A stretch of DNA of 64,000 bases. Origin: an uncultured Clostridia bacterium (lineage in GTDB: Bacteria > Bacillota > Clostridia > TANB77 > CAG-508). This document shows, one piece after another, positions 22,803 through 51,625 of the stretch. The position numbers and the translations under genes are program-made. Within the stretch, counting starts at the first letter, position 1, and each line of letters begins with the position of its first letter. The notes beneath the pieces are model-generated. The model was not told the DNA's origin. It worked only from the letters and a program-made list of their open reading frames with translations, and did not search any database. The stretch is from contig CALXVG010000001.1 in assembly GCA_944391955.1 (NCBI GenBank), forward strand, positions 249,916-313,915. The letters are read 5' to 3'.

Positions 22803-22813
22803 ATTATTACCTC

Positions 22814-24229: not shown

Positions 24230-24241
24230 TTATATCTCCTT

Positions 24242-25060: not shown

Positions 25061-25095
25061 TTTTTAATATTTCCTTTCTTAAAATATTAATTACT

Positions 25096-26682
25096 TTACA
25101 AAGAATAATATCCATAAATTTCTGAATAATCTATATTTATCTCTTTTCTTTCTACTTTACTGCCTTTCCAATATGGGTTTGTTGATGAACTACCTGTATT
25201 TCCTTCTATAGTATATACTTTTATTCCATCACTGTCAACAACAATACCTGTGTGATCAATTGAACCATCATTTTCCCAATCATAAAATATAATATCTCCC
25301 GATTTTGGTACATAATTTGGATAGTCTTCTTGTGTTCTTCTTCTGCTCTCATCCATAAGTCTAAATTCTTCACACCCTCTAAATGGATTTGACAATACAT
25401 CTGGTATTAATCCGCAATTATAATAACAATATGAAACAAACATTGCACACCAATCCGCCTCTATTGAAGGTTCATTACCATAAAATGTACGAATTCCTTC
25501 TGGTATTGTATATGATGTAAATCTAGAATGTCCTTCTCCTTCAAATTGTAATGCAAATTCTGCAACATCTGATGTGGCAATAAATCCTCCGTTTTCTTCA
25601 TATGTAAAAATCTCTTCCTCATTTTCTGATGTTCTTGTTACTTCTTTATCTGGAACAGTATTTCCTTCTTTCATATCATTATTTTGTAACCATTCTAATT
25701 GTTCTTGCGTATAATATATATAATAGCTTCTTCCAAATACTTCTCCTGCGTCTGAATATGTAAAATCATATATTCCTTTTACATATGTTTCGAAAGCTGC
25801 ATCTCTTGCTGGAACATGTCCTGCATATCCTCCACCTACTTTACTCCACCATTTATCCCAAATATGCTTGTTATGTTCCCATGAATTTATTTCATATAAC
25901 CCTGCACCTTCTTCATATACTTCTTTAAATGTATATCCATTTCTTGTTGGTAAATGTCCAAAGTTATATTTTATTGTAGTTAATGCATATAATTGTTGTT
26001 GTGATAAGTTTAATCCTTCTGTTTCCTCTAATACACTTTGATATGATGCTTCTGCTACTTGTCCTCCAATCTGATCTACTAATTCTTTTTCAATATATAT
26101 TTCCATTGCATCTATTTCTTCATCTGTATATGTAGCAGTATGTCCTCTAGTTAAGAAATTTTCAACATATTCTGCTACATTTTCTTCTGTATATTCTCCA
26201 TCTGATTTTAATACTTTTCCTTTACACTCAAAACTAGGATAGTGTGATTTCCACTGTAAATCTGAATTGCCTATTGTTGGCCATCCTGCTCCATCTCCAT
26301 ACATTTTATAAAACCTGCCATCTTCAGTTTGAGGGGCTTCTGTAGTGTGAGAAAATTGTCTTAAATAATCTACTAATGATAATTCTTGAGATGCATTATT
26401 CATATCTTCATCATTTAATCCATTTTCAGTATCTCCACCAAATAAAGCCGTAATAATTGCTGCTATAATAACTGTTACAATTATTATAGGAAGTAAATAC
26501 ATCATTATTTTTGCAACTACTGTAGCTATAATCTTTATTATTGCTTTTACCAATTGTTTTTTTGCATTTTTCTTTGCTTGTCTTTTAAATGCCTCTTTTC
26601 CACTTTTTAATGCTAGATTATTTTGTCTGTTAGCTTCAACTTCATCTAATTGATTATTTTCTTCTTCATTCATTTTACTCAC
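25096..26682 (-). CDS. Conjugation-type cell-wall hydrolase (N-terminal TM, glycosidase-like middle region, C-terminal CHAP amidase/peptidase domain)
   Basis: TM IIATVVAKIMMYLLPIIIVTVIIAAI. C-terminal CHAP catalytic Cys/His context WCAMFVSYCYYNCG ... GSIDHTGIVVD; analogous to TcpG/PrgK/CwlT/Orf14. Confidence 0.75.
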   Translation of the reverse strand: MSKMNEEENNQLDEVEANRQNNLALKSGKEAFKRQAKKNAKKQLVKAIIKIIATVVAKIMMYLLPIIIVTVIIAAIITALFGGDTENGLNDEDMNNASQELSLVDYLRQFSHTTEAPQTEDGRFYKMYGDGAGWPTIGNSDLQWKSHYPSFECKGKVLKSDGEYTEENVAEYVENFLTRGHTATYTDEEIDAMEIYIEKELVDQIGGQVAEASYQSVLEETEGLNLSQQQLYALTTIKYNFGHLPTRNGYTFKEVYEEGAGLYEINSWEHNKHIWDKWWSKVGGGYAGHVPARDAAFETYVKGIYDFTYSDAGEVFGRSYYIYYTQEQLEWLQNNDMKEGNTVPDKEVTRTSENEEEIFTYEENGGFIATSDVAEFALQFEGEGHSRFTSYTIPEGIRTFYGNEPSIEADWCAMFVSYCYYNCGLIPDVLSNPFRGCEEFRLMDESRRRTQEDYPNYVPKSGDIIFYDWENDGSIDHTGIVVDSDGIKVYTIEGNTGSSSTNPYWKGSKVERKEINIDYSEIYGYYSL

Positions 26683-26778
26683 TTCCTATCTTTATGTAAA
26701 AAGATGTAAATCTATTATCTCATTTTGCTATAATAGGCAGATATAAAATCTGCCTATTTCGTAATATATTATACAGGT

Positions 26779-29406: not shown

Positions 29407-29526
29407 TGGGCATAAATTCCCCTTTCTAAAGGTTTACTTTTATTTTATTATACCATATTATGGTAATTTTTAAAAGTTTTTTATGTGAAATTTATATGTT
29501 AAAACTAATTTTTTTGTCTAAAATAT

Positions 29527-29835
29527 CTAAGTCAATACATCATAATTAAAAATTATAGTTTTTGCATTAAATGAAGTGGGTAAAATCGTTGATTCCTTTT
29601 CGTCTTCAATCTTTAATATATACCATGCTGCTGTGCATAGGAAAATAATTCCTAATGACACTATCAGTATAATTAAAATTGTTATTTTTATTTGGTGTAT
29701 AAGTCCATTTATTGCCTCTTTTAATAATGTTTTTCTTCTTTCCTTCTTTTTTGCCTTTTTTTCTTTATGCTGAAAGTTTGTTATTTCTAATCTGTTTTTT
29801 CTATCCTCATCATCCCAATTAGAATTTAAATTCAT
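29527..29835 (-). CDS. Small single-TM protein (102 aa) between the two VirB6-like genes
   Basis: Basic N-terminus KKAKKKERRK, TM ITILIILIVSLGIIFLCTAAWYIL. Confidence 0.5.
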   Translation of the reverse strand: MNLNSNWDDEDRKNRLEITNFQHKEKKAKKKERRKTLLKEAINGLIHQIKITILIILIVSLGIIFLCTAAWYILKIEDEKESTILPTSFNAKTIIFNYDVLT

Positions 29836-29858
29836 CTATTTTACTCACTTTCTTTATT

Positions 29859-32690
29859 TTAGAAAAAATCATTTAGTTCTTTGAATATTGCTTCTGCATC
29901 TTTTTCTGTTATTTTTTTACCATAAAACACTTTATTTACCATTATTTTTTTAAATTCTGGTAAAGTTTTTGGAACATTTTTAGCTAATTTAAACATATCT
30001 GCCAGTCCTTCATGAGAGTATTCTGGATGTTTTTTCTTTACTTCAATAATTTTTTCCAGGTCTGTTTCATCTCTATCTTTAAAGTACTTAACATCTTCAG
30101 GTAATATCTTTTCTTTTTTCAAATTAATCATTTCTTTTACTGTTTTTATTCCTAAACTTTCATATTCTTTAAATTCATCTTCTGTTATTTCATTTTCTTT
30201 TAACTGAATTATATCCGATATTCCCTCTACTCCAGATTCTTTATATGCTTTATATTCTTGACCTGTTATACCATTTTCCATTGCCATATTTAGCTTATCT
30301 GGATTTGTTAGTATATCATCTGAAAATCCTCTAATATTTTCTGTCATATTTTGTTTTATTTCATCTATATTTATTTCATGTTCATTATTTTCATTATTTG
30401 TTGAGTTAGAATCTCTTCTTCCTAATAAACTTCTTCTATGTGTTCCATATGCATGTTTTGCTTGGCTTTGTATTTTTCTGTTTATTCCAGAAGCAATATT
30501 GGCTCCTGCTATTGCACCGGCTCCTGTGTATTTTGCTGTATTTCCTAATTCCCCTGAAGCAACTCCAGCTCCTAAACCAATAGTTGCACCTCCAAATGCT
30601 CCTGCAATTTTTGCCGCATGATTAGTTGCCCATTTACCTGTTTTTGCTATCCATCTTCCTGTTGATTTCAATGTACTAGGTCCTAAAATTTTTCTTCTAT
30701 TTGTTCTGGATACTTTATTTCCTTTCATACTGCTATAATTTTCATTTGAATTGCTAGTATTTTTACTTTTATTTTGTGAATTAGTTAAAACGATATTTCC
30801 TGTGCCACTAGTTACATTCTCATTGTTTGATTCTATTTCATTTTTCTTCTGTTCATCTTCATTAACTGTTCTTACTCTATTATCATTACTTTGTTTTTCT
30901 TCTAAATTGGCATGCTTTGCTTTACCTTGTATTTTATTCATCATATTCATTAGCATAGCACCACCTGCTGCTGCCCCCACTGTTCCCACTGTGCTAGCTT
31001 TTTCAAATCCAAACATTTTTCTAATAAATTTTTCAGCTGGTATGAAAAATGCTAATACAATAATTGCATATACAGGATTTACATTTACTAGCTTACTAGC
31101 ACTTTCAATAAAAATTGTATATAGCAATAAATGTACTGGTTGTAATAGACAATTAAATATGTATTCTCTAATCCAAATAGAAAATGCTTGAGCTTGTCCA
31201 TCTTTAATCTTATCAATAGGATATGTAAGTGCTATTAGTGGTGATACCATTGTTAAAAATGCTATAAACACTAACCTTTTTATATATTGGATTGTAAATA
31301 TTACTGTTAAAATAGCTAATGCAATATACATTATTACATATCCAAAATATGTAAAATAAGAATCATTGTTATTTCCTGTTGCCATATTTCTAATATTAGT
31401 TATGAATTTATCTGTACCATCAATTGAAATAGTACTTACAGTAAAAAGATTGGTTAATCTTTCTGTAATACTTAATATAAATACCATTAGATAATGCAAA
31501 ACAAATAATATAGCTATTGCAATAAGCCAATCTAATAACATTTTTTTGTATTTTGCTTTATCTTGTGATGTACTGCTCATTAATATCCTAATTCCAACAT
31601 ATAGTAGTACAGATAATAGCCCTACTAATGCTAAATTTCTTAAAGCTATATACCAAGAAGCAATTATAGGTCTTAATGTATATGCTGTTGATGTTTTTTC
31701 ATATACTTCGTCAGTTGTTGTTTCACCAATTTTGTATAAGGTGCCTGACAAAGTATCCCTTGAGTTTTTATCCATCCACTCTTCTGAATCACAAATATAG
31801 AAGTATGTTTCATTATTATATTGCCATTGCATATAGTATAAGTTCTTATCTTTTAATCTATCTGCTATTGCTACGCCTTCGGCTCCTGCCGCTGCTGCTA
31901 AAAATATTGCAACTGATATTGCACCTGCATCGGCTGGCATTGGTATACTTGCTATTCCTTCAACTTCAACTACCATACCTACACCGCCACCATATGTAGC
32001 ATACTCCCAATCCGTATTAGCTAATGCTTCTACTGCATTCATAACAGATACTAATGCAATTCCATGAGCAAAAAGTTCTGTTAAACTCATGTTGTCTCTA
32101 ATTGATTGTAAAGGATTTGTTGCTCCATAATCTGTTTTACATTGTTCATATGTAATACTGTCAGAAACAGTAATATATTCTATCTTTGTTTTATAAAACT
32201 TTGTTTTTCCTTCTTCATCTCCAAGAGGTGAGAAAAAATTTATATCAAATGCTGGTATCTGTCCAGAGAAAATTGCTGCTGGTGAATATTTTATTCTGTA
32301 TATTGTTGCTCCTTTTCCTCCTTTGTTTCCTGGTGTTTCTTCTTTGATAGCATCAGATGTTATAATATTTGAAAATTTTTCATCCCCTATAAATGTCGAT
32401 TGTAATGTTGACATTACTCCATCTGCTATTCCTAGTATAAACTGACTTATTGGAGTAAATAATGCACCACCTTCTTCTTCTGTATTTTCTTCTTCTTCAG
32501 TTGAATCTAATATAGATTGCATTATATTTGTTAAATCATCCTGACTAACTGAGCTTCCCGGATCATATTCTGGTATTGATTCTATGTCTGATGCCGTTTC
32601 TGCATATGACCACTTAGGAATTATAAATTCTGCCAAGATTATTAAACTTATTATTGTTAATAATATCCTTTTTTTAAAACCAATTTTCAT
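29859..32690 (-). CDS. VirB6/TcpH/Orf15-like polytopic T4SS channel protein, paralog 2 (943 aa)
   Basis: WYIALRNLALVGLLSVLLYVGIRI core and same TM layout as paralog 1. Asn/Ser-rich linker. C-terminus IFKELNDFF. Confidence 0.75.
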   Translation of the reverse strand: MKIGFKKRILLTIISLIILAEFIIPKWSYAETASDIESIPEYDPGSSVSQDDLTNIMQSILDSTEEEENTEEEGGALFTPISQFILGIADGVMSTLQSTFIGDEKFSNIITSDAIKEETPGNKGGKGATIYRIKYSPAAIFSGQIPAFDINFFSPLGDEEGKTKFYKTKIEYITVSDSITYEQCKTDYGATNPLQSIRDNMSLTELFAHGIALVSVMNAVEALANTDWEYATYGGGVGMVVEVEGIASIPMPADAGAISVAIFLAAAAGAEGVAIADRLKDKNLYYMQWQYNNETYFYICDSEEWMDKNSRDTLSGTLYKIGETTTDEVYEKTSTAYTLRPIIASWYIALRNLALVGLLSVLLYVGIRILMSSTSQDKAKYKKMLLDWLIAIAILFVLHYLMVFILSITERLTNLFTVSTISIDGTDKFITNIRNMATGNNNDSYFTYFGYVIMYIALAILTVIFTIQYIKRLVFIAFLTMVSPLIALTYPIDKIKDGQAQAFSIWIREYIFNCLLQPVHLLLYTIFIESASKLVNVNPVYAIIVLAFFIPAEKFIRKMFGFEKASTVGTVGAAAGGAMLMNMMNKIQGKAKHANLEEKQSNDNRVRTVNEDEQKKNEIESNNENVTSGTGNIVLTNSQNKSKNTSNSNENYSSMKGNKVSRTNRRKILGPSTLKSTGRWIAKTGKWATNHAAKIAGAFGGATIGLGAGVASGELGNTAKYTGAGAIAGANIASGINRKIQSQAKHAYGTHRRSLLGRRDSNSTNNENNEHEINIDEIKQNMTENIRGFSDDILTNPDKLNMAMENGITGQEYKAYKESGVEGISDIIQLKENEITEDEFKEYESLGIKTVKEMINLKKEKILPEDVKYFKDRDETDLEKIIEVKKKHPEYSHEGLADMFKLAKNVPKTLPEFKKIMVNKVFYGKKITEKDAEAIFKELNDFF

Positions 32691-32718
32691 ATATACACCC
32701 CGGCTATTGTGTATTTTT

Positions 32719-34674
32719 CTATGCGTTTTTCTCGGCTATTTTGTTTAAATTTGTTTCCATAAATTCAAATTCTCGTTTTGTTGGTGTTATTTGTAGTATT
32801 GCTGTATCTGCACCAACCTTAAATAATCCTTCTCCTATTAAACATGTTACTAGGAAATTTGCTTCACCTTCACTTAATTTGAATACTTCTTTTAAGTATG
32901 CAATTTCAGATTTATCTTGTGCCAAAAATAGCTTTGTTTCTGATGATGTTAGTACTGCTTGTGCTTCTGGTTTTTCGTAGAAGTCTTGGAATCTTTGTGA
33001 TACTATTGCAAGTGATACATTTCTTTTTCTTGCACGTCTTGCCATTTTATTTAAGAATTCTACAGCTTCTGGGAATGGTAGCAACATCCATGCCTCGTCT
33101 ACTAAAACTCTTTTCTTTACTGCTTTTGTTTTATCTTCACTATTTTTCTTAACAAATTTTTCCCATATCCATGATAATAATATTTGTTGTGCAAGTGGTC
33201 TTGCAAATCTTTCTTCTAGCTGTGAAATATCTAGATTTATAAATGGTACTGAATCTAATAAATCAAATGTTGACTGTCCATCAAAATATGCCATTTGTCC
33301 ATTTAGTTCTCTTACATATTGTTTCATAACTTTACTTAAATAACTATAATGGAATGTATAGTTACTATCTTGATTTTCCTTTGCTTTTCTTAATAATGTT
33401 TTATACCATGAACCAATTGTTGGCATTGCTTTCTTTTCTCTTGAGATTTTACCTAACTTGCCTAATGTATTTGGTTCATATAAGCTTTCTGGGTCTGCAG
33501 TTATACCACATCTTGCATATTCTTCTGCTACTGCTTCTGCTATTATTTGTTTTGTTAATTCATTTACTTCTTCACTTCTTGTACTACCTCTTGCCATTGT
33601 AATTAATGCTTGTGTTACGTCTTCTATTTTATTTTCTACGTTTAAAACTGTTCTTTCTCTTCCTGTTATTTCATCTCTAACTTTTTCTTCTTCTATATCA
33701 AATAAATTTATTACTGTTTGTGATGTTGGTCCTAATACAACATTTATTCCACCTAGGGCTTCAGCCACTATTTTATACTCACCTTCTGCATCTAGTGCCA
33801 AACTTTCAATTCCCATCAATACAGCTGAACGAGATATTAAGGTTTTCATTGTAACAGATTTACCTGCACCAGATTTAGCAAATATAACCATATTGTAATT
33901 TGCTAAAGTTGGATGGAAATTATCAAATAATACTGGTACACCAGTTTGTTTGTTTATTCCTATTGGAATACCTGTTAAATGTCCAACTTCTGAAGTTGTA
34001 AATGGGAAAACTGTTGCCATTGAATTTCTATCAAATGTATGTGTTGTTTTTATTTGATTTTTCATTAATGGCATATTTGATTGCAATGCTTCATCTTGAA
34101 TTCCCCATGCTGATTTTATTCCAACTAATGTTTTTGACATTTCTGTTGCTAATAATTTTGTATATGCATCTAATGATTGTAAATTATATGAATATAGTGT
34201 TGATATTATTGAAGCTTCAAATAATTTATTAAATCCTGATGCAATTTCATCTCTTAATCCTTCTGCTTCTAATCTTTTTTGTGCTAATATACTTTCTCTG
34301 TTTATATTTCCTCTATCTGCTGCTACGATTCTTTCTGTTTCTAATTGGTTTATTACTTTATTTAATTCATTTTGAGATCTTGCTTCTGGAACTGGTCTTA
34401 TGTATATGGATGTATTTATATCTCCAAATAAATACATATCTCTAAATAATTCTGGGAATGTACACATTCTAGGAAGACTTGATACAAAGAAACTTCTTGC
34501 ATATCTTGTTGTGTTTGATATTATTTCCAAATGGTCTATATTTGAAGCATCTATACCTGCTGGAGCAATTAATTCTTTTATAGACTTTTTTCTTAGAATA
34601 TTATATTCTGGTTCTTGTCTACTTAGATTATTCTGCTGTGTTCTTGATTCTAGCTCTCTTGTTTTTTTGCTCAT
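32719..34674 (-). CDS. VirB4/TraE/Orf16-like conjugal transfer ATPase
   Basis: Firmicute VirB4 N-terminus IKELIAPAGIDASNIDHLEIISNTTRYARSFFVSSLP. Walker A FAKSGAGKSV. Walker B RVLVDEAWMLL. C-motif AIVSQRFQDF. Confidence 0.85.
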   Translation of the reverse strand: MSKKTRELESRTQQNNLSRQEPEYNILRKKSIKELIAPAGIDASNIDHLEIISNTTRYARSFFVSSLPRMCTFPELFRDMYLFGDINTSIYIRPVPEARSQNELNKVINQLETERIVAADRGNINRESILAQKRLEAEGLRDEIASGFNKLFEASIISTLYSYNLQSLDAYTKLLATEMSKTLVGIKSAWGIQDEALQSNMPLMKNQIKTTHTFDRNSMATVFPFTTSEVGHLTGIPIGINKQTGVPVLFDNFHPTLANYNMVIFAKSGAGKSVTMKTLISRSAVLMGIESLALDAEGEYKIVAEALGGINVVLGPTSQTVINLFDIEEEKVRDEITGRERTVLNVENKIEDVTQALITMARGSTRSEEVNELTKQIIAEAVAEEYARCGITADPESLYEPNTLGKLGKISREKKAMPTIGSWYKTLLRKAKENQDSNYTFHYSYLSKVMKQYVRELNGQMAYFDGQSTFDLLDSVPFINLDISQLEERFARPLAQQILLSWIWEKFVKKNSEDKTKAVKKRVLVDEAWMLLPFPEAVEFLNKMARRARKRNVSLAIVSQRFQDFYEKPEAQAVLTSSETKLFLAQDKSEIAYLKEVFKLSEGEANFLVTCLIGEGLFKVGADTAILQITPTKREFEFMETNLNKIAEKNA

Positions 34675-35821
34675 TTTCTTCTCCTCCTTCTTCTTGTGTT
34701 TTTCTTATTCTTTGTATAGATTTTTCTGTTACATCTTTTCCAACATATTTTTGGTTTTCTCTTAACATATCTTCTGCCATTTTTTGAACTAATTTTTCAA
34801 AATCCTGTTCTTTCTTTTTTATTTTTCTTTCCTTTTCTGCTCTTACAACACTTATTGTTTCTTTTGCTAATTTTAATGCTTCTTTTTCTATTTTTTCGTC
34901 TATTGCCTGCATTTTCTTATCTAATACATCTGGTGCTGTTGAAAATAGTTCGTTATAACCTGATCTTATTGCCTTTTGTACACTAAATATGTCTGAATCA
35001 TCTCTGTTATATGCAATATACAATAGTTCAACTAATTCATTAGAATTTAGAACTCTACTTTTTATACTACATGCTGATAATGTTCTTATAAGTGATTGTG
35101 CCCTTGTATATAATTCTGAAAATATCATACTTTTTCTTTCTTCTTCATCTAGCAAATCTCCACCTAGTTCTGCAGAATAGTATGGAACTATTATATAATA
35201 GTGTTTTCTCAAAACATTTTTATTTTGACTTGTTTTTTGTATGCTATCTATTACATCACTACCATATTCGTACAAGTTTTTCAATCTTAATATTTCCATT
35301 GATAAAGCATCTGCTTGTTTTTCATTATAATTGTCTGCTTTTATTAATCTTGCATACATTGCTTGTTTTGTGTCTAATTCTTTTTTGGTAATTTCTAGTT
35401 TTTCGTTGTATTTAGAAAGACTTTCTGATATATTTATTGTTCTTGTTTGTGTATATATTTGTATTGGATGTCTTAGAGTATTTAAAAACTGAACAAATCC
35501 TGCTTCTACTGCTGTTTTTTCTACATGTGACATTAGGTCATAGTTTATTCCTTCACATTCTATAACCATTAAATATCTCTTACCTTCATCTTGTACTATC
35601 ATATTATCTTCTATCTTATCAAATTGCATATATTGGAAGATAGATTTTTTTGTGTATTCCTTTGCTACTTTTGTAGTAGTTCCCACTGTAGCTCCATCTT
35701 CACTAATGCTATGTTTATTTTTGTATGACATGTACCATGCTACAAAAAGCAAAATTATTATTGCAAATACTAAAAAAATCAATAAAATTGTTAATAGGCT
35801 CATTATACTATCCATTTTCAA
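34628..35821 (-). CDS. Membrane-anchored T4SS-island protein with coiled-coil C-terminus (397 aa)
   Basis: N-terminal TM LLTILLIFLVFAIIILLFVAWY. Soluble domain; 47-nt overlap with VirB4-like gene and ATGA overlap with upstream gene (translational coupling). Confidence 0.6.
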   Translation of the reverse strand: MKMDSIMSLLTILLIFLVFAIIILLFVAWYMSYKNKHSISEDGATVGTTTKVAKEYTKKSIFQYMQFDKIEDNMIVQDEGKRYLMVIECEGINYDLMSHVEKTAVEAGFVQFLNTLRHPIQIYTQTRTINISESLSKYNEKLEITKKELDTKQAMYARLIKADNYNEKQADALSMEILRLKNLYEYGSDVIDSIQKTSQNKNVLRKHYYIIVPYYSAELGGDLLDEEERKSMIFSELYTRAQSLIRTLSACSIKSRVLNSNELVELLYIAYNRDDSDIFSVQKAIRSGYNELFSTAPDVLDKKMQAIDEKIEKEALKLAKETISVVRAEKERKIKKKEQDFEKLVQKMAEDMLRENQKYVGKDVTEKSIQRIRKTQEEGGEENEQKNKRARIKNTAE

Positions 35822-36111
35822 TTTTCCCCCTTATCTTCTGTATATGTGTATATTATATTTTTTTTCTTTTTAAACTTATACCATTTTAGTATAGCTTCAT
35901 CTATTTTTTCTCCGCCTGCTCTTTTGGTAAATGTAAATGAATTATTTTCTGGAATCCTAAATGTTGCAACAGCAAAGCCTATTCCTGCAAAGGCAAGTGC
36001 TATTATTATTCCTACTATATGCATTCCTAATGACATAAATAAATAGAAGAATATCAAACCTATTACACCTGTTGCACATGTATATATCAACGATTTTGCT
36101 GTAAATATCAT
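35818..36111 (-). CDS. Small two-TM protein, VirB3/Orf17-like candidate (97 aa from ATG; GTG alternative at 36129)
   Basis: MIFTAKSLIYTCATGVIGLIFFYLFMSLGMHIVGIIIALAFAGIGFAV then cytoplasmic tail. GGAAG RBS before ATG 36111. Confidence 0.5.
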   Translation of the reverse strand: MIFTAKSLIYTCATGVIGLIFFYLFMSLGMHIVGIIIALAFAGIGFAVATFRIPENNSFTFTKRAGGEKIDEAILKWYKFKKKKNIIYTYTEDKGEN

Positions 36112-36374
36112 TAATATTCTTCCGTTCACCCTTCACATCTCTTGGAATTTTATGTATTGCCACAGTTATTCCCCCTTTTATGGTATTTATTTAGTTTATT
36201 ATATCAGATTTTGGAGGTAATTGTAACTATTTGTATATATGTAATTAAAACTTAATTTTTTTGTAATATTTTTGTAATATATGCCATAAGAAAGGCGTTT
36301 TGCTAAGTTAGTCTCCGAAGCAAGTGCAAAACACATGTCACTCGCTTTGCTCGGACGAATTAAGGTAGCCTAAC

Positions 36375-36438
36375 CTTGTTGTATACGGAAAAATCCAAAT
36401 AAGGTCAAGCTAAAAGTCGATTTTTCCTATACAATAAA
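36375..36438. repeat. Palindromic intergenic repeat, copy B
   Basis: Arms identical to copy A (CTTGTTGTATACGGAAAAATC ... ATTTTTCCTATACAAT), loop divergent. Again lies directly after an intrinsic terminator in minus sense. Confidence 0.6.
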
Positions 36439-36467
36439 AAAAGATATCAGATTTATTCTGATATCTC
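36434..36467 (-). terminator. Intrinsic terminator after pilin-like gene 36484-36840
   Basis: AGATATCAG-atttatt-CTGATATCT stem followed on minus strand by TTTTTTTAT. Confidence 0.75.
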
Positions 36468-36483
36468 TCTATTAATATAATTA

Positions 36484-36840
36484 TTATAGTGCAAATGTAT
36501 CAAATAATAATTTAGCAATTGTTGTTGCACTCATTACTACTACTATACCTATAATTAAAGGAACCATAGATTTTTTGTATTCTGATTTTTCTTCTAAGCT
36601 TCCCATCATATATTTAACACCTAAAATAGCTATAATAACTACACCACCTATTATTGCAACATTTCTGATAAATCCTAAGATTTTACCTGCAATAGTTTGC
36701 ATTGAGGTTGAATCGCCATATGTAATAGCTCCTTCTACGCCATCTACAGTTGCTTGAGTTGCAAATACTGGTGAAGCTACTGTTATTGTTAAAATTGCTA
36801 TCATCATTAGTACAGAAAGTAATTTAACTGATTTTCTCAT
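36484..36840 (-). CDS. VirB2/TrbC-like pilin-type protein, paralog 1 (118 aa)
   Basis: Signal peptide ending VFATQA. Two hydrophobic helices separated by KYMMGSLEEKSEYKKSMVP, motif shared by all three paralogs. Confidence 0.65.
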   Translation of the reverse strand: MRKSVKLLSVLMMIAILTITVASPVFATQATVDGVEGAITYGDSTSMQTIAGKILGFIRNVAIIGGVVIIAILGVKYMMGSLEEKSEYKKSMVPLIIGIVVVMSATTIAKLLFDTFAL

Positions 36841-36950
36841 ATTTTTCCCCTTTCTTTATAATATTTATATTTTGCACTTTCTTAAGTTGAGAACCTATTA
36901 AAAGATTCTCCGGAACCTTGTTGCTTCCGCAATAAGAAAATGTTAAAGAC

Positions 36951-37391
36951 TTAAATTGTTATATTCTTGCTGCTTATATATGCTGTGTCTGTTGATTCTA
37001 CATTATTTCCTATTTCTATAACTATTTTCCATATTGTAAATGCTGAAAATATTACTACACATCCAACAATATATGGTACCAATGTTTCTTTTATCTTTGC
37101 TTTCTCATCAACACTTCCTGTTATGAATTGAATACCAATTACTAATCCTACACCTATTGCAAGTATTGCTGCAATTGCAAATAGTACATTAAATATCTCT
37201 TTTGATGTTATATTTAATTCTCCTTCATCAAGTGGTTTATTGTTTGCATATGCACCTTTGCCTATATCTAAAAAACCTTCTCCTCCGCCTATAATTTCAC
37301 TTGATATAGTATCATCTGCATATACTTGTGTAGAACAGCATAGCAATATTGTTATTATTATAACTGTTAAATTTAGAATGATTTTTTTCAT
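36951..37391 (-). CDS. VirB2/TrbC-like pilin-type protein, paralog 2 (146 aa from MKKIILNL)
   Basis: Signal peptide ...TQVYA. Helices flanking QFITGSVDEKAKIKETLVP. AGGTGA RBS 4 nt before ATG 37391; longer ORF in track has no RBS. Confidence 0.6.
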   Translation of the reverse strand: MKKIILNLTVIIITILLCCSTQVYADDTISSEIIGGGEGFLDIGKGAYANNKPLDEGELNITSKEIFNVLFAIAAILAIGVGLVIGIQFITGSVDEKAKIKETLVPYIVGCVVIFSAFTIWKIVIEIGNNVESTDTAYISSKNITI

Positions 37392-37405
37392 TTTATCACC
37401 TGTTT

Positions 37406-37750
37406 TTATAAATTTAATTGTTCTATTAATCCTACTAATAATGATACTCCCATTAACATAAAGCAACCTACAACAAATGGTATCATTTCTTTTTTATAAT
37501 CTGCTTTTTCTTGTACACTCAAAAACATATATTTTAGTCCGATTATTGCTAAGACTACTATAGATATCATTATTCCTACGGTTCTTATGGCGCCTAAAAC
37601 TGGTCCTGCTTTTTGAACAAATGATTCTGAACCAGCTAATGATGGTTCGGGATTATAATTTTCTGGATTTTCTAATGCAAATACATTATTTGAAAATAAT
37701 ATAAGCATAATGCTAATTAATGGGACTATTATTTTTAATGTTCTTTTCAT
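37406..37750 (-). CDS. VirB2/TrbC-like pilin-type protein, paralog 3 (114 aa)
   Basis: Signal peptide ...NNVFA. Motif KYMFLSVQEKADYKKEMIP between two hydrophobic helices. Confidence 0.65.
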   Translation of the reverse strand: MKRTLKIIVPLISIMLILFSNNVFALENPENYNPEPSLAGSESFVQKAGPVLGAIRTVGIMISIVVLAIIGLKYMFLSVQEKADYKKEMIPFVVGCFMLMGVSLLVGLIEQLNL

Positions 37751-38090: not shown

Positions 38091-38092
38091 TT

Positions 38093-38166
<74 letters not shown>

Positions 38167-44739: not shown

Positions 44740-44856
44740 CTTTTATTCCTCCTAATCAACTTTATAATTATATAACAATTTCTTAGCAAATACAATATTT
44801 TGGGCGAAAAAACTAAAACAAAAGAGAGCTTTATCTCTCTTTTGTTTCTGTATTTA

Positions 44857-46585
44857 TTATATTACAAATTTCTTTATCAAACCTATTCCTATCGCTAAAC
44901 ATATTAATACTGTTAATGTTATTCCCGCATAATCTTCGAAAGCACCTGTATGTATTTCTAATATTACTAATGCTTTGTCATCATCATCTTCTTGTTGTTC
45001 ATCATAACCATCTGGTTTGACATTGTCTGGTACAGAATCTATGTCTGGTGCATCTTTATCGTTATAGTCTTCACTTATTTCTGCTATATTTGTTTTTAAC
45101 CCTAAATTGTCTGAACCATTTATCCATGTAAATATTACTTCAACTTCTGCTGATTCACCTGGTTGTAATAATGTTCCTTCTAATGCTCTTGTTGCAATTG
45201 TATTATCCCCTGTTTTTGTCCATAATGGGTTATCTTCTTGAACAAATGTTAATCCTGCTGGTATATAATCTGTAATTTCAGTTGCATATCCTGCAATTTC
45301 ACCTTGGTTTATTATTCTTATTCTATATACAAATTTTACAACTGTGCTGTCTATTTTTTTCTTGTCGATTACAACTTTTGCAACTGGTTCTGGGTCATCT
45401 TCTGGTGTAAATCCTGTTTCTGTTATTACTGTTACTCCATCTACTGTTACTATTGTTTTTGTTACCCATTTTAATAATGCTAAATCAAAATATTTTACAT
45501 AGATATGTTCAACATCTTGGTCATCTTCGCCTTCATTCCATTCGTTTGGTATTGAGTCGTCATCGTCAATGTCTATTTCGTTTCCGTCTTCATCTACTGC
45601 TTTGTCTGCTGTAATATGTGCTTTGTTTGTAATTATTCTATCTGCTGATGTTATGTTTTGTTCTACAACTTGGAATACTACTTTTACTTCTGCATAATCT
45701 GGATTATATGGTTCTGTTGTGCTTATTGCTTTTGTTGAATCAAACGGTTGTAATAATTCATCTTTTAAATAATCTGTTCTTATTTCAACTGCTTGTGTTG
45801 GGTCTGCTGTTTCATTTCCACTTGCATCATACATCTTCCAACCATATTGCACGTTTGTTTCGTTTGTTGGAAGGAATATTACTCCGTCTGGAATATCATC
45901 AGCTATTTCTGTTGCGTATCCTAAAACTGTTCCTTCATTATATACTCTGATTGTATATGTTACTAAATCACTATTTGCTACTAGGAGAGGTGTTTTGTCA
46001 TGCTCGTATTTTATTTCTCCATTTTCATCTAGTGTTGGTTGTGGTATTCTTGTTGTTACTGCTTCATCATTTACACTTGTTATGAATTTTCTTAGTGCTA
46101 AATCAAATATGGTTAATTTTTCATTTGGTATAATTATTGTTATAACATCTGTTCCTTTTTCGCATATTACTTCTGCACCGTAAAAACTCATTTCCTTCCA
46201 TGTCTTCAAGAGTTGCTTCATATATTATATATGCTGTTTTATCATGATTTAATCCAGTTTTTACTCTTAACCTAAATGGATTATTTAATTTTACATAACC
46301 TGATGGTGCTGTTATTTCTGTGATTTCAAATACAAACTCTTGATTCTCTGATGTAATTGTTATTTCTTCTGATGTAAACGTTCCATTGTTATCAGTAGTG
46401 ATTGATAATGTGTTTGCATCTTGAACAATTTCAAATATTCCTCCTGCAATTTTATTATAGTCTTCATCCACTTTATTGATTTCTATTGAAAATTTTGTTT
46501 GTTCTACTGCATATGATTGAGTTTGTAATATTAATATTAACAGAAATATAATCGCACATATCAATATTACATTTCTTATCTTCAT
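44857..46585 (-). pseudogene. Surface adhesin paralog (signal peptide + Cna-B-like + DUF11-like repeat domains + C-terminal sorting-signal-like tail) interrupted by a frameshift at an A5/T5 run near 46180
   Basis: ORF 46121-46585 (MKIRNV..., signal peptide) and ORF 44857-46221 are in different frames overlapping by 100 nt. Both halves are homologous to contiguous parts of the 1227-aa neighbour; the frame switch maps to CCGTAAAAACTC. Confidence 0.65.
44949..46110. repeat. Segmental duplication copy 1 (about 1.16 kb, near-identical to 46699-47860)
   Basis: Direct comparison: about 1 kb essentially identical (one mismatch seen), then ~95% identity. The identical antisense ORFs 45648-45950 and 47396-47698 in the track confirm it. 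Confidence 0.9.
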
Positions 46586-46604
46586 AATTTCTCTACCTTT
46601 TCTA

Positions 46605-49600
46605 CTATACTACAACCTTCTTAATTAGCACTATTCCTCCTGCTAATATAGTTAATACAACTAATACTAACCACATATATGATGTATTTCCACCTGTTTG
46701 TATTTCTAATATTACTAATGCCTTGTCATCATCATCTTCTTGTTGTTCATCATAACCATCTGGTTTGACATTGTCTGGTACAGAATCTATGTCTGGTGCA
46801 TCTTTATCGTTATAGTCTTCACTTATTTCTGCTATATTTGTTTTTAACCCTAAATTGTCTGAACCATTTATCCATGTAAATATTACTTCAACTTCTGCTG
46901 ATTCACCTGGTTGTAATAATGTTCCTTCTAATGCTCTTGTTGCAATTGTATTATCCCCTGTTTTTGTCCATAATGGGTTATCTTCTTGAACAAATGTTAA
47001 TCCTGCTGGTATATAATCTGTAATTTCAGTTGCATATCCTGCAATTTCACCTTGGTTTATTATTCTTATTCTATATACAAATTTTACAACTGTGCTGTCT
47101 ATTTTTTTCTTGTCGATTACAACTTTTGCAACTGGTTCTGGGTCATCTTCTGGTGTAAATCCTGTTTCTGTTATTACTGTTACTCCATCTACTGTTACTA
47201 TTGTTTTTGTTACCCATTTTAATAATGCTAAATCAAAATATTTTACATAGATATGTTCAACATCTTGGTCATCTTCGCCTTCATTCCATTCGTTTGGTAT
47301 TGAGTCGTCATCGTCAATGTCTATTTCGTTTCCGTCTTCATCTACTGCTTTGTCTGCTGTAATATGTGCTTTGTTTGTAATTATTCTATCTGCTGATGTT
47401 ATGTTTTGTTCTACAACTTGGAATACTACTTTTACTTCTGCATAATCTGGATTATATGGTTCTGTTGTGCTTATTGCTTTTGTTGAATCAAACGGTTGTA
47501 ATAATTCATCTTTTAAATAATCTGTTCTTATTTCAACTGCTTGTGTTGGGTCTGCTGTTTCATTTCCACTTGCATCATACATCTTCCAACCATATTGCAC
47601 GTTTGTTTCGTTTGTTGGAAGGAATATTACTCCGTCTGGAATATCATCAGCTATTTCTGTTGCGTATCCTAAAACTGTTCCTTCATTATATACTCTGATT
47701 GTATATGTTACTAAATCACTATTTGCTACTTCAACAGGTGTTTTATCATGCTCATATTTTATTTCTCCATTTTCGTCTAATGTTGGTTGTGGTATTCTTG
47801 TTGTTACTGCTTCATCATTTACACCTGTTATGAATTTTCTTAATGCTAAATCAAAATGTCTTAATACTAATGGTTCATAGTCATCATCATCTTGTTGATA
47901 AGAACTATTGTCTGATGGTGGATTATAGTTATCTATATCTACATTGTCTGGTCTTGAATCTCTATCATCAATATTTAAAATGTTTCCATCTTCATCTAAA
48001 ACTTTATCTTCTTTTATTTCTGCTATATTTCTTAAAATTCCTTCATAAGTATTTTCTGCTAATACTATACATGTTACTTCAATTTCTCTATAGTATAATC
48101 CATCTGTTCCATTTATTGATTGTTGCCATGTATCTGTTGCTTCTATATCTGCTGCTGTTTTTTCTGGGTCATATGCTTTTATTATTGAGTTTTCTAATGC
48201 TGTTGAATAAATTTGTGCTTTTCCTGCCAATATTCTTACATCACTTAGTGTTGTTACATTGTTAAAGTCGGTTACTGCCAAGTTTGTTACAAGATCTTCT
48301 GTCGCATATAATCCATCAGTTCCAACTAGATTTACAGTTTGATTTGTTCCATCTACCACTGGATGCCAGAAGTTATTTGTATTTTCTTTATAATCCATTA
48401 GATATCCTAATCCTTCTGGTATATAATCTGCAATTTGTGTTGCATATCCATCTAGTTCCCCTTCATTATAAATTCTTATTTTATATGTAACTATGTCACC
48501 TTGTTTAACTACTACTGGTGTTTTTGGATGTATATATTTTGCTGTTGTTATCTTTTCGCCTGTTGTAGCATCTACTCCGTTTAAATCTGTTGTATCTACT
48601 TTTGGTGTTCTATCATCATCACCTGTTAATGATATTCCATTTATTTTTGTTATATATTTTCTTAATGCTAAATCAAATTCTTTTGTCTTACTATTTTCTA
48701 CTGTTATTGTTACAATATTTCCATCTACTGTAAAGCTTGGTTGTACTCCTGGTACATCTACTATTGCTCCTGTTGAATCTACTATTTCAACTTTTTCTAT
48801 AACATATGTTGTACCATCATCACTTAATTTAGTAGTAACTTTTATTCTGAATGGTCCGTTAATTCCTACATATCCTGATGGAACTGTGGTTTCTTCTATA
48901 TTAAATGTAAATGTTTGTCCTTCATCTGTTATTGTTATTTCAACTGTTTCAAATGTTCCGTCTCCATTATCTCTTAATATTATTGTTTCTCTTCCTTCTG
49001 TTTCATCTATTACTGTAAATCCTGCACCTATTAAAAGATTTCCGTCAGGGTCTACTTTTCTTATTTGTAATTTTAGATTACCTGTAATTCGTTTTGTTGT
49101 TATTTTATCTGTTTCTGTGATTTTTTCTTTTTCTACTTTTAATATAGGTTGTTGATCAGCTTCATCTGCTGTCCATAAACTTGCTGTTGTTTTGAAATAT
49201 GTTGTTGTTGTTTCAACTGTTATTTCTGATAAATCATAAACTGAAGCATATAAAGATGGTATATATACATATACATCGCCATTTCCTATTAAATCATCTA
49301 AAGTTATCTGTAATCCTTGTTCATTAAATAGTACTGGTAAATCTTCTTCTGTTTTTTCTGGTATTTCTACATTTTGTCCATCTTTTATTTTTACTGTTAC
49401 ATCAAAGTCATCTGTTACATCTGTTTTCTTTATGTTGATTGGTCCTATTACATAATCTCCTTGTGCGTTTGTTGTTATAGTTAATGGATTTGTTTTATCT
49501 ATTTCTACTCTTTGTAATCCGACATTTAAATCTCTTACTACTGCATTTCCATATTGTGCTGCATTTGCTTTTGCATTATCTATAAAATATCTATATAATG

Positions 49601-50270
49601 CATCTATTTGATCTACTTCACTTACTGTGCTGTATGAATTTCCATTTTTCTTTAGTATTGAACTTATATATACTGAATCTGCTAATGATAATGAGTAGTC
49701 TTGTCCGTTTAAATCATAGTTTGCAAAATACCATAATGCCATTTGTTGTATTACTTCAATTTCATCATCTGTTAAAGTAGAATTCTCTAATCCTGCTTTC
49801 TTTAGAAAAGCTGCTCTATCCATGTCTGGATTTTCTGGTAAATACATATTATCTACAATCCACAATATTGCATTATATGAATTATCAGTATCAATATTAG
49901 TATATCCAATTACATTTTGATAGTAATCTATGATTCTATCTGATTCTTGTTTTAAATCTCCATATTTTGTGTATGTTACTGGATCTGTTGTTCCTGTTAG
50001 GTCTATACTTCCAAATCCTAGTCCACTTCTTAAACAATATAATGCAAAATAATCATCTACAGTGTATACACCATCTTTTAAGACTTTAAATACTCTTGCA
50101 TCTTTCTGAGTTCCTTGCCCTCCAACTGTTGCTGTAAAACTTGAATTTGTGTATGGTCTTTCATCTACAATGTTTAAATTCATCGTATCAGTTGCATAAG
50201 CAATATTTGATAAAATTAATAAAATTAAAATAATACTTGTGGTAATTAGTGATATTTTTAATCTTTTCAT
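46605..50270 (-). CDS. Giant cell-surface adhesin (signal peptide, Cna-B-type and DUF11-like Ig-fold repeats, C-terminal sorting-signal-like motif + TM + KK tail)
   Basis: 1221 aa from MKRLKISL (AGGAGAGG RBS). Repeats FDLALRK(F/Y)IT. C-terminus LEIQTGG + hydrophobic helix + KKVVV. Confidence 0.8.
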   Translation of the reverse strand: MKRLKISLITTSIILILLILSNIAYATDTMNLNIVDERPYTNSSFTATVGGQGTQKDARVFKVLKDGVYTVDDYFALYCLRSGLGFGSIDLTGTTDPVTYTKYGDLKQESDRIIDYYQNVIGYTNIDTDNSYNAILWIVDNMYLPENPDMDRAAFLKKAGLENSTLTDDEIEVIQQMALWYFANYDLNGQDYSLSLADSVYISSILKKNGNSYSTVSEVDQIDALYRYFIDNAKANAAQYGNAVVRDLNVGLQRVEIDKTNPLTITTNAQGDYVIGPINIKKTDVTDDFDVTVKIKDGQNVEIPEKTEEDLPVLFNEQGLQITLDDLIGNGDVYVYIPSLYASVYDLSEITVETTTTYFKTTASLWTADEADQQPILKVEKEKITETDKITTKRITGNLKLQIRKVDPDGNLLIGAGFTVIDETEGRETIILRDNGDGTFETVEITITDEGQTFTFNIEETTVPSGYVGINGPFRIKVTTKLSDDGTTYVIEKVEIVDSTGAIVDVPGVQPSFTVDGNIVTITVENSKTKEFDLALRKYITKINGISLTGDDDRTPKVDTTDLNGVDATTGEKITTAKYIHPKTPVVVKQGDIVTYKIRIYNEGELDGYATQIADYIPEGLGYLMDYKENTNNFWHPVVDGTNQTVNLVGTDGLYATEDLVTNLAVTDFNNVTTLSDVRILAGKAQIYSTALENSIIKAYDPEKTAADIEATDTWQQSINGTDGLYYREIEVTCIVLAENTYEGILRNIAEIKEDKVLDEDGNILNIDDRDSRPDNVDIDNYNPPSDNSSYQQDDDDYEPLVLRHFDLALRKFITGVNDEAVTTRIPQPTLDENGEIKYEHDKTPVEVANSDLVTYTIRVYNEGTVLGYATEIADDIPDGVIFLPTNETNVQYGWKMYDASGNETADPTQAVEIRTDYLKDELLQPFDSTKAISTTEPYNPDYAEVKVVFQVVEQNITSADRIITNKAHITADKAVDEDGNEIDIDDDDSIPNEWNEGEDDQDVEHIYVKYFDLALLKWVTKTIVTVDGVTVITETGFTPEDDPEPVAKVVIDKKKIDSTVVKFVYRIRIINQGEIAGYATEITDYIPAGLTFVQEDNPLWTKTGDNTIATRALEGTLLQPGESAEVEVIFTWINGSDNLGLKTNIAEISEDYNDKDAPDIDSVPDNVKPDGYDEQQEDDDDKALVILEIQTGGNTSYMWLVLVVLTILAGGIVLIKKVVV
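46699..47860. repeat. Segmental duplication copy 2
   Basis: See copy 1; offset exactly 1750 bp. Confidence 0.9.
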
Positions 50271-50572
50271 AAAACCTCTCCTTATCAAAGTAGTATGTTT
50301 ATTATATATTTTTTTTCAAAAAAATCAACTGTCATTTTTTTTGAGTTATTTCAGCCGATTTTTTTCTCTTTACGGAACTACTCTTTACATGTTCCTATAT
50401 AGTATTTTTTGAAAATTATTACATTTTCTTTACATTTTTGTTTATATTAATTTCTTTTGCATTTTGCATTTTCTTATATTTCTTGTATTTGCTAACTCTT
50501 TAATTATACTATAAATAATTCATTTTTTCAACTAATTATGTAAAAATCTTGATTTTTTTGTCTGTTTTCTAT

Positions 50573-50650: not shown

Positions 50651-50724
50651 GCAGATATAGTTTAGTGGTAAAACATAACCTTGCCAAGGTTGAATCGCGG
50701 GTCCGATTCCCGCTATCTGCTCCA
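50651..50724 (+). tRNA. tRNA-Gly (anticodon GCC)
   Basis: Acceptor GCAGATA/TATCTGC, anticodon loop TTGCCAA, T-arm GCGGGTCCGATTCCCGC, encoded CCA. Confidence 0.85.
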
Positions 50725-50812
50725 TTATAATAAATTAGTTATAATGAATAATTTTTTTATTATAATTATTCATTTTTTATTTTAGCTAGCATACAATATA
50801 ATATTGAAGTAT

Positions 50813-50886
50813 GGCGACATAGCCAAGTGGTAAGGCACGAGTCTGCAAAACTCTGATTCCCCGGTTCAAATCCGGGTGTCGCCTCC
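50813..50886 (+). tRNA. tRNA-Cys (anticodon GCA)
   Basis: Acceptor GGCGACA/TGTCGCC, anticodon loop CTGCAAA, T-arm CCGGTTCAAATCCGG, CCA encoded. Confidence 0.85.
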
Positions 50887-50903
50887 AATTTTTTTTGATA
50901 CAA

Positions 50904-50979
50904 GCACCATTAGCTTAGTTGGTAGAGCAGGGCACTCTTAATGCCAAGGTCCACAGTTCGAATCTGTGATGGTGCACCA
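50904..50979 (+). tRNA. tRNA-Lys (anticodon CTT)
   Basis: Acceptor GCACCAT/ATGGTGC, anticodon loop CTCTTAA, T-arm CACAGTTCGAATCTGTG, CCA encoded. Confidence 0.75.
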
Positions 50980-51081
50980 CAAAATGCTTACGGAAGATTA
51001 ACTTTCGTAAGTTTTTTTATAAAAAAACTTATTTGTTACATAATGGAAATATAGTTAAATATCTTTATGGGAGTGGTAATA

Positions 51082-51625
51082 TTGAAAATAATGTGTATTT
51101 CTGATATTCATCGGTAATATAGCCTCTTTAAAAAAAGCTATAAATAAATTTCAAGAAGAAAAAGCAGAAAAGCTTCTTATTCTGGGAGATTTTTCTAGTT
51201 ATGGTTTCTTTTCTTCTTCTGATTTTGAAGTTGCAGAAATTTTAAATAATATGGCTGGAACCCTTATTGCCGTAAGAGGAAATTGTGACAGTTCACGAAC
51301 TGAAGAATTATTTAATTTCGCCTTACCAATTCAAAGAACAATATCAATAAATAATATTTTTATTACTTTGACACATGGCCATGTTTATAATAGAAATAAT
51401 TTGCCTGAAAATTGTGGTAAAATTTTTCTTTCCGGTCATACTCATGTTGGTTTAATAGATAAACTTAATAATAAAATTATTGCCAATCCCGGTTCTATTT
51501 CAAAACCTCGTAATGGTAGTAAAAAAAGTTATATTATTATAGATGAACAGTTTGTAATATTAAAAACATTAGATGGAGAAGTAATAAAAAAAGTTGATAT
51601 AAAACAAATCGACCATTCACTATAA
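51082..51625 (+). pseudogene. YfcE-like metallophosphoesterase (phosphodiesterase) disrupted by a 1-nt frameshift at about 51112
   Basis: Frame 1 reads (L/M)KIMCISDIH then stop (CAT CGG TAA). Deleting one C gives SDIHGNIASLKKAINKFQEEKAEKLLILGDF continuing into the 124-aa ORF with GNCDSS ... LTHGH ... SGHTH motifs. Confidence 0.7.

Follow-up and report, generated by a model that had tools for sequence, protein, structure and literature searches.

In Neisseria, an expressed surface gene, pilE, is accompanied by non-expressed partial copies, pilS, which are many and diverse and donate sequence to pilE by non-reciprocal exchange. In Helicobacter pylori, the adhesin paralogs babA, babB and babC undergo RecA-dependent intragenomic gene conversion, which gives rise to chimeras (PMC5483490). 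Adhesins of the thioester/isopeptide (TIE) class, such as SfbI and Cpa of S. pyogenes and Cpe0147 of C. perfringens, are built of a secretion signal, an N-terminal thioester domain, a stalk of tandem immunoglobulin (Ig)-like domains and a sorting-signal-like tail (PMC4450167). CLIPPER (formerly DUF11) is a stalk domain that fibrillar adhesins carry as tandem repeats between the adhesive tip and the anchor; it is CnaA-like and forms isopeptide bonds, although the Lys-Asn isopeptide is missing from some DUF11 domains (PMC12617251). Here, we describe two tandem surface-adhesin genes of an uncultured Clostridia bacterium, a large upstream one (gene 1) and a shorter downstream one (gene 2), that share a long and nearly identical direct repeat. 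They are located in a stretch of 64,000 nucleotides (positions 249,916 to 313,915 of contig CALXVG010000001.1, assembly GCA_944391955.1), which was analysed as a whole and is referred to below as the window. The locus is best explained, with a probability of about 80% in our estimation, by gene conversion between two old paralogs, of which the downstream one is a pseudogene.

The repeat extends over 1165 bp at an offset of 1748 bp (44943-46107 vs. 46691-47855, window coordinates), and its two copies differ at 12 positions, being 98.97% identical. The position-by-position comparison at the offsets of 1746, 1747, 1749 and 1750 gave background identity only. An earlier note on this DNA, made from the sequence alone, had described a near-identical direct repeat within two tandem surface-adhesin genes; the repeat is indeed present, while the note had placed it 2-8 nt off and at a spacing of 1750 bp. 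All mismatches are located at the repeat edges (10 of them in 45983-46095, and the other two at 44950 and 44974), and the perfect core of 1008 bp (44975-45982 vs. 46723-47730) is not explicable by chance. The identical antisense open reading frames (ORFs) of 100 aa, to which the note had pointed as well, are found in both copies (45648-45950 and 47396-47698). Its description of the surroundings as otherwise unique holds within the window: the self-comparison that it had proposed reveals a single long repeat in the 1748-bp register, and self-BLAST of the whole window (G+C content of 29.7%) detected no second repeat of at least 150 bp at an identity of at least 93%. A spacer of 583 bp (46108-46690) separates the copies. 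Copy 1 (46691-47855, minus strand) encodes residues 806-1194 of the gene 1 product and comprises exactly its CLIPPER domains 2 and 3, from the first residue of domain 2 (FDLALRKF) to the TG of the LEIQTGG motif, with TG included. Copy 2 (44943-46107, minus strand) is a part of the downstream pseudogene, and its 5' edge (45983-46095, minus strand) contains the 10 sites that in the window differ from copy 1.

Gene 1 (46605-50270, minus strand) encodes a protein of 1221 aa when read from ATG, which is also the length predicted by a gene caller on contig L001 of a metagenome-assembled genome (MAG); the start at TTG (50288) would give 1227 aa. The predicted product consists of a signal peptide, a thioester domain, a SpaA/CnaB-like domain, three CLIPPER/DUF11 domains, the LEIQTGG motif, a membrane helix and KK, in this order. 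Near its N-terminus it both matches the thioester domain profile PF08341 (27.7 bits at the cutoff of 22, E=3.7e-6) and contains a Cys-containing motif, YCLR (residues 78-81), which is followed by QQMALW (residues 175-180); the definitions used for these motifs, [YFL]C-hydrophobic-hydrophilic and TQxx-hydrophobic-W-like, were taken from PMC4450167. The CLIPPER domains open with FDLALRK motifs at residues 532, 806 and 1012, and the tandem copies score above the cutoffs of PF01345 (DUF11/CLIPPER; 32.9 bits vs. 24.6) and TIGR01451 (49.5 bits in three stretches vs. 24), as do those of gene 2 (see below), while the SpaA match of gene 1 (21.7 bits) is just under the cutoff of 23.1. In the AlphaFold2 (AF2) model of residues 395-1221 (mean predicted local distance difference test score, pLDDT, of 82.5), three beta-sandwich domains of pLDDT >90 precede a C-terminal helix. 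The Foldseek search of PDB with the three-domain model returned only generic multi-Ig structures, such as the Ig-like domains of PrgB and integrin legs, at a template modelling (TM) score of about 0.2, thus nothing more specific than an Ig-like stalk. The phmmer search of PDB sequences with the large protein yielded zero matches, and the look-up of the exact 1221-aa protein gave no record. Taken together, the domain content identifies the gene 1 product as a predicted fibrillar adhesin of the TIE kind, whose putative thioester domain probably binds its ligand covalently.

The protein is like SfbI, Cpa and Cpe0147 in its secretion signal, N-terminal thioester domain, tandem Ig-like stalk and sorting-like tail, and like the CLIPPER-containing fibrillar adhesins in the position of the tandem repeats between the predicted adhesive tip and the anchor. 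It differs from the TIE proteins in several respects. Its stalk is composed of CLIPPER/DUF11 (CnaA-like) domains and one SpaA domain, its tail has no proline (LEIQTGG) and in the structural model appears to follow the last beta-strand directly, with no wall-spanning linker, and no sortase-like gene was found nearby.

The stretch 44857-46585, which the earlier note had taken for one gene, consists of two overlapping ORFs in different frames. The 5' ORF (46121-46585, minus strand; 154 aa) encodes a signal peptide and a SpaA/CnaB-like domain (Pfam SpaA, 36.6 bits vs. 23.1) and ends early after a frameshift. The 3' ORF (44857-46221, minus strand; 454 aa) encodes two CLIPPER domains identical to those of gene 1 (PF01345, 42.1 bits vs. 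24.6; TIGR01451, 41.6 bits in two stretches vs. 24), the LEIHTGA tail, a membrane helix and KK, and is devoid of a signal peptide of its own; in scaffolds L089-L091 gene callers place its start at 46191 (444 aa). The frameshift is due to a single C inserted at 46180 on the gene (minus) strand, GAGTTTTTA[C]GGTGCA: the orthologs in loci L013 and L016 read GAGTTTTTAGGTGCA at this site, and the window reads GAGTTTTTACGGTGCA. The inserted C stands between A and GG, outside a homopolymer or any repeat tract. Upon the removal of this one base the gene encodes a 575-aa protein, which aligns end to end with three intact proteins of relatives (P0001-P0003, 575-577 aa; 63-65% identity, 100% coverage).

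The frameshift sequence is shared by 13 of the 13 assemblies that cover the site, with contigs L001-L010 being identical and scaffolds L089-L091 showing no difference from the window. The exact 154-aa product was found in 16 independent contigs from several cohorts and assemblers, including the NCBI MAG GCA_947857255.1. Because the insertion lies outside any tract and the same product recurs on these 16 contigs, the frameshift is neither a sequencing error of this assembly nor a slipped-strand switch. A T5 slippage or a sequencing error had been considered as its cause and was ruled out: the orthologs also have T5, and the extra C follows TTTTTA. The scan of JGI metagenomes for T4, T5, T6 or intact variants of the site returned no match of any kind and is, thus, uninformative. 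The database matches of the repaired small protein omit the large adhesin of the window and the protein of L001, despite 95% identity over 419 aa, and since the window's own sequences may be under-represented in that protein database, not much can be concluded from its lack of a close allele that is intact. As the inserted C splits the gene into ORFs of 154 and 454 aa, the second of which has no signal peptide, the downstream gene is, judging from its reading frames, a pseudogene in this species and is presumably not expressed.

The age of the gene pair can be seen from the comparison with loci L011-L016 of relatives. Their gene order is: the gene of a 1324-aa adhesin, an intact gene of a 575/577-aa protein, pta, ackA, and the genes of thiamine pyrophosphokinase, RNase III, a radical-SAM protein and Sua5; the genes downstream of the adhesin genes in the window, from pta-ackA onward, are the same. 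The two paralogs within each of these loci are 71-75% identical in protein sequence over 420 aa, and their DNA is typically 60-90% identical per 60-nt window. Patches of 97-100% identity are short and limited to the extreme 3' end and to L013 and L016; they point to conversion tracts that arose independently and have boundaries of their own. In the window, the SpaA region of the small gene is only 32% identical in amino acid sequence to that of the large gene, and the last 60 nt of the small gene are 53% identical to those of the large gene. Since the paralogs of the relatives are 71-75% identical, and the SpaA region and tail have diverged, the pair must be old, and the identity within the tract is secondary. 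The similarity within the genome exceeds that between species and has sharp bounds (98.97-100% in the tract vs. 71-75% aa identity of paralogs and 63-65% of orthologs), as is characteristic of gene conversion. This changes the earlier view of the downstream gene as a recent copy of the last part of the large gene that lacks its original N-terminal half; it is an old, conserved paralog, with intact orthologs of 575-577 aa.

Further indications come from the 5' edge of copy 2, whose ten sites can be phased by short reads because they are within 126 nt of the unique spacer sequence. Four haplotypes of this edge were found. None of the sites is converted in the window, in L002, L089 and L090, and in the Logan contigs extending this far; L001 has 45983-45987 as its only converted sites; 45983-45987 together with 46027-46095 are converted in L003 and L004; and all are converted in L091. 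Every alternative base, at 10 of the 10 sites, is the base of the upstream copy, i.e., of gene 1, while the upstream edge is constant. Endpoints are, thus, variable and the recipient carries donor alleles. The four haplotypes and the exclusive presence of gene 1 bases among the alternatives argue for repeated conversion with the large, intact gene as the donor at the 5' edge. This direction is demonstrated for the 5' edge only, and for the core we infer it. At the 3' edge, several assemblies have the other allele of site 46722 in the upstream copy, and some exchange in the reverse direction, into the upstream copy, is possible.

Several observations weigh against this interpretation or restrict it, mostly by way of the assemblies. 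All comparison assemblies that were fetched are short-read or k-mer assemblies. In L089-L091, the positions that differ from the window are the same for both copies, and this, like the perfect 1008-bp core, may arise by construction. The perfect identity of the core is less secure than the two-copy arrangement, because assemblers usually reduce a repeat that exceeds the insert size to one collapsed graph edge and write it twice. The repeat contains about 30 variable sites in its 1165 bp, in mosaic arrangement across 14 assemblies, while the flanks have about 0-1 per kb; these single-nucleotide polymorphisms (SNPs) could be real differences between the copies, resolved arbitrarily by assemblers, or could represent true recombinational diversity. 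The true identity of the copies is somewhere between about 97% and 100%. Also, the diagnostic sites of the core, as judged from the relatives, are mixed (78 of the large-gene type and 52 of the small-gene type), and the alleles at the variable core sites have no pattern of large gene vs. small gene. Two arguments were tried and abandoned: the reading of the donor direction for the core from the diagnostic sites of relatives, in view of their split of 78 vs. 52, and the SNPs shared by both copies as a proof of ongoing homogenisation, which we do not rely on, since the resolution of a loop duplicates the collapsed edge.

Other explanations of the locus have to account for the same observations. 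Near-perfect identity, sharp boundaries and the tandem arrangement could be expected of a fresh segmental duplication, in which the last third of the large gene was copied and fused to a foreign N-terminus. We find it very improbable, however, given that relatives encode intact orthologs of the same position and architecture, which match the repaired protein over its whole length, that the SpaA region and tail of the small gene are old and diverged, and that the copy 2 edge retains bases of the small-gene type that in some strains are swapped for those of the large gene. Whether an assembler could have made the second copy, or made it identical to copy 1, is a legitimate question in the case of a perfect repeat longer than the insert size, which short reads cannot phase, and the identical 'strain' SNPs in both copies of L089-L091 as well as the numerous contigs that break at the repeat may seem to speak for it. 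However, the breaks are what is expected of a true repeat, and so are the loop contigs: two Logan contigs, L006 and L007, have a length of 1778 nt, and the 30 nt with which they begin return as their last 30 nt, which corresponds to a 1748-bp loop in a k=31 graph. Moreover, all four junctions with unique sequence (gene 1/repeat, repeat/gene 1 tail with spacer, spacer/copy 2 edge, and copy 2/small-gene tail with pta) are present in independent assemblies from different assemblers. Contigs L001-L004 lead from the large gene across the spacer into the diverged copy 2 edge, where they end, each with the internal offset of 1748; contigs L093-L096 span the exit of copy 2 into the small-gene tail and pta; and scaffolds L089-L091, which come from other samples, contain the large gene, repeat, spacer, repeat and pta with no gaps, collinear with the window. 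The two-copy arrangement is real, and an assembler origin of the copy or of its identity is extremely improbable. Thus, the artefact that the earlier note had proposed to check for is excluded as regards the topology of the locus, and not as regards the perfect identity of the core.

Equally hard to credit is the continued expression of the downstream gene by programmed +1 frameshifting or reversible phase variation. It is true that the lesion is single and both ORFs are otherwise open, and that within the 100 nt of their overlap there are runs of A5 and T5 as well as a rare codon, CGG. However, the lesion is a C between A and GG and not a change in the length of a simple-sequence tract, as slipped-strand phase variation would involve, it is the same in all 13 assemblies, the intact orthologs require no frameshift, and in our reading no known +1 slippery-site context matches. 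A further possibility is that the locus serves as a functional variation device, in which the silent copy is a stalk-exchange cassette resembling pilS, and recombination between the repeats switches the anchor tail or resets the locus. The SNP density of the repeat, which is about 10-fold that of the flanks and mosaic in the 14 assemblies, and the near-identical tracts in tandem adhesin genes of other species could be read in this way. So could scaffold_16753 of ena:ERZ28614393 (L092; sample SAMEA6814682), which is collinear with the window at 48897-46691 and 46117-41116, contains a single repeat copy and lacks 1748 bp; its ORF leads from the SpaA region of the large gene through the repeat to the small-gene tail (...LEIHTGAFEDYAGITLTVLICLAIGIGLIKKFVI) and is, thus, an open chimera with the alternative tail. 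The suggestion of the earlier note that the repeat is a substrate for recombination is plausible in the light of this scaffold, which has exactly the predicted 1748-bp deletion; nevertheless, L092 could be a real deletion recombinant or equally the product of an assembler that skipped the loop, and we treat it as a lead and not as a result. Against a variation device it speaks that a single cassette, (nearly) identical to the expressed copy, stores little diversity, that at the phased edge the transfer is from the expressed gene to the silent one, that 16 of the 23 tabulated variable core sites are synonymous, that the polymorphism itself may be an assembly effect, and that no dedicated recombinase or invertase is present nearby. 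We regard this possibility as quite unlikely.

In the reading that we favour, the history of the locus is as follows. Upstream of pta-ackA, this low-GC gut bacterium, an uncultured member of the Clostridia, has an old operon of two adhesin genes. The second of them is a shorter, stalk-only paralog (signal peptide, SpaA, two CLIPPER domains and an anchor of the same kind), which in this species is inactivated by the 1-nt insertion. Its CLIPPER pair has been overwritten by the gene 1 segment through non-reciprocal homologous recombination, i.e., gene conversion, presumably of the RecA type. The conversion tract extends from the first codon of a domain to the TG motif, and more than one event has taken place, since its 5' end is not the same in all strains. 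This has left direct repeats of about 1.1 kb, 583 bp apart, which could also recombine with each other, and the 1748-bp deletion would leave an intact chimeric adhesin with the gene 2 tail.

Of the described systems, the bab paralogs of H. pylori are the closest analogue in mechanism, as in both cases adhesin paralogs share extensive sequence. However, the bab genes encode outer-membrane proteins and are dispersed in the genome, and it is binding specificity and expression that are switched by their conversion, whereas here the genes are in tandem, it is the stalk rather than the binding tip that is exchanged, and one of the partners is a pseudogene. The presence of an expressed surface-protein gene beside a non-expressed partial copy, with non-reciprocal exchange between them, is reminiscent of pilE and pilS. 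Unlike there, the copy is single and near-identical, and the demonstrable transfer is from the expressed gene to the silent one.

A separate question concerns the C-terminal tails of the two genes, in which LEIQTGG or LEIHTGA, respectively, precedes a hydrophobic helix and KK. They are as the earlier note had described them, i.e., non-canonical and sorting-signal-like. They have no LPXTG, as it had stated, and they are not special to this locus: among the 120 best-scoring of 665 relatives, to which the tail survey was confined, nearly every protein ends in such a tail. Most of these 120 proteins have at their end an acidic stretch (EDDxD), a beta-strand closing with [ST/E][IVL]xTG, a spacing of about four residues, the hydrophobic helix and LIKK[FY]VL; a truncated entry (P0092) and some proteins with other endings (e.g., P0083 and P0103) depart from this pattern, while rare relatives read SPSTG or NPKTG at this position (P0097 and P0104). 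Neither LEIQTGG nor LEIHTGA, which have no proline, corresponds to LPXTG or to its validated variants. The isolated tail of the large protein scored 17.0 bits with TIGR01167 (LPXTG anchor), narrowly above the cutoff of 15.9, and the tail of the small gene and two other tails of the family gave no match; the NPKTG-variant tail scored 15 bits, below the srtB_target cutoff of 18.15. In the AF2 model, the last strand is KALVILEIQT, and the C-terminal helix begins four residues on (model residues 801-826) and is followed by KK, so the aliphatic residues that precede TG may be explained by their position in the strand that completes the final domain.

Housekeeping sortases are usually unlinked to the genes of their substrates. 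No ORF of the 64-kb window has the T[LVIFM]xTC sortase signature, and no sortase-like ORF is present in the flanks (up to 10 kb on either side) of 88 related loci; as unlinked sortases are the rule, this says little. Five matches to the sortase motif in the window and the 88 loci were rejected, as they represent a GGDEF-type regulator and spurious antisense ORFs. In C. difficile, motifs of the type (S/P)PXTG are cut by SrtB, while the Pro-less NVQTG of CbpA is not cleaved in vitro (PMC4155245). The tails described here are like those of the SrtB substrates and CbpA in their tripartite end, with xxxTG, a hydrophobic helix and basic residues; the rare SPSTG and NPKTG relatives resemble (S/P)PXTG, and NVQTG is similar in that a branched aliphatic residue stands where the proline would be. 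Because SrtB left NVQTG uncleaved in vitro, a proven sortase motif that has Ile or Val here is without precedent. The tails may serve either in sortase anchoring or in simple membrane tail-anchoring. It is unlikely that the repeat-spacer-repeat structure is a working recombination switch that diversifies the stalk or swaps the anchor tail and that, in addition, the Pro-less [ST/E][IV]xTG-helix-LIKK[FY]VL tail is a new sorting signal with an enzyme of its own. The recombination mechanism is well known and ordinary, as genes of surface proteins commonly evolve in this way, while neither the protein family nor its tail has been characterised, and the presence of the Pro-less tail on most of the 120 best-scoring relatives makes it a concrete question on surface anchoring.

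The relatives are MAGs labelled as uncultured Clostridia or Clostridium sp. (e.g., CAG:273), and their names point to the gut of humans, rabbits, goats and sheep. Near-identical tracts in tandem adhesin genes recur among them: 3197 bp at 99.9% in L047, 1475 bp at 99.7% in L029 (at the 5' ends of the genes), 1238 bp at 98.7% in L088, 898 bp at 94% in L025, 678 bp at 94% in L080 and 630 bp at 93% in L039. As six loci share such tracts, the concerted evolution of modules between adjacent paralogs is a habit of the family. It acts on the stalk module of tandem thioester-domain adhesins in widespread uncultured gut Clostridia, and in the locus studied here the conversion has kept the downstream pseudogene healthy-looking. 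For annotation, the lesson is that a seemingly recent duplication can be a homogenised pair of old paralogs. Since short-read MAGs break or collapse at such loci, the copy number and diversity of adhesins in these organisms are probably under-counted, and the concerted evolution itself is probably detected too rarely; the locus illustrates well how adhesin repeats can make MAG assemblies misleading.

Two observations on other members of the family can be added. In another species, L023 (1-1984 of CALXAT010000005.1) contains an adhesin-internal tandem array with a period of 378 bp (126 aa) and copies that are 94-95% identical, which suggests that variation of domain number within a gene also occurs in this adhesin family. 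In two other species, a conserved set of genes is located downstream of the tandem adhesin genes (L047, 11550-15967; L088, 18257-21973): it consists of genes of a protein of about 312 aa, a membrane protein of about 220-256 aa and a 307-aa GGDEF-like response regulator, and L047 additionally encodes a protein with a type-IV-prepilin-like N-terminus. This gene set, which is absent from the window locus, is possibly a co-regulated surface module.

As regards the organization of the locus, the stop codon of the large gene is separated from the ATG of the downstream gene by 19 nt, and a terminator-like hairpin of 14 pairs followed by a T-run (44815-44848, minus strand) is located directly after the latter. 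The short gap and the position of the hairpin make the pair look like one operon and suggest a single transcription unit for the two adhesin genes. A sigma-70-like promoter match upstream of the large gene (50503-50531, minus strand; TTGAAA, 17 nt, TATAAT; 11/12) is a consensus match only, and promoter-like sites are no more numerous in the region than in shuffled sequence. The Rfam scan detected tRNAs only, with no regulatory RNA at the locus. The gap of about 1 kb upstream of the adhesin operon contains genes of tRNA-Gly(gcc), tRNA-Cys(gca) and tRNA-Lys(ctt) (50651-50979, plus strand), which are followed by a terminator-like hairpin at 50986-51012. Loci L011-L016 carry an ATP-grasp gene where the window has these tRNA genes, and the conservation of the operon thus does not extend to its upstream flank. 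The ORF at 51251-51625 (plus strand; 124 aa) matches profile positions 50-150 of 154 of Metallophos_2, with the N-terminal third seemingly missing; the same short form (118 aa) is called on the MAG contig L001, and it may reflect a truncation or a mis-called start.

Just past the Sua5 gene, beside tRNA-Gly(tcc) (38092-38165), the window contains a type-IV-secretion-like cluster (21429-37750, minus strand). Among the ORFs of this cluster that were scanned, neither a relaxase nor a coupling protein was identified, and four large ORFs have no Pfam match. Genes of this cluster encode a VirB4/TraG-P-loop ATPase (32719-34674), two very large TrbL/VirB6-like proteins (26779-29406 and 29859-32690), a CHAP-domain hydrolase (25096-26673) and three VirB2/TrbC-like pilins (36484-36840, 36951-37391 and 37406-37750). 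In loci L011-L016, Sua5 is followed by RecD2 and RecG instead. Because of this difference and its proximity to a tRNA gene, the cluster has the appearance of an inserted conjugative element or of what remains of one.

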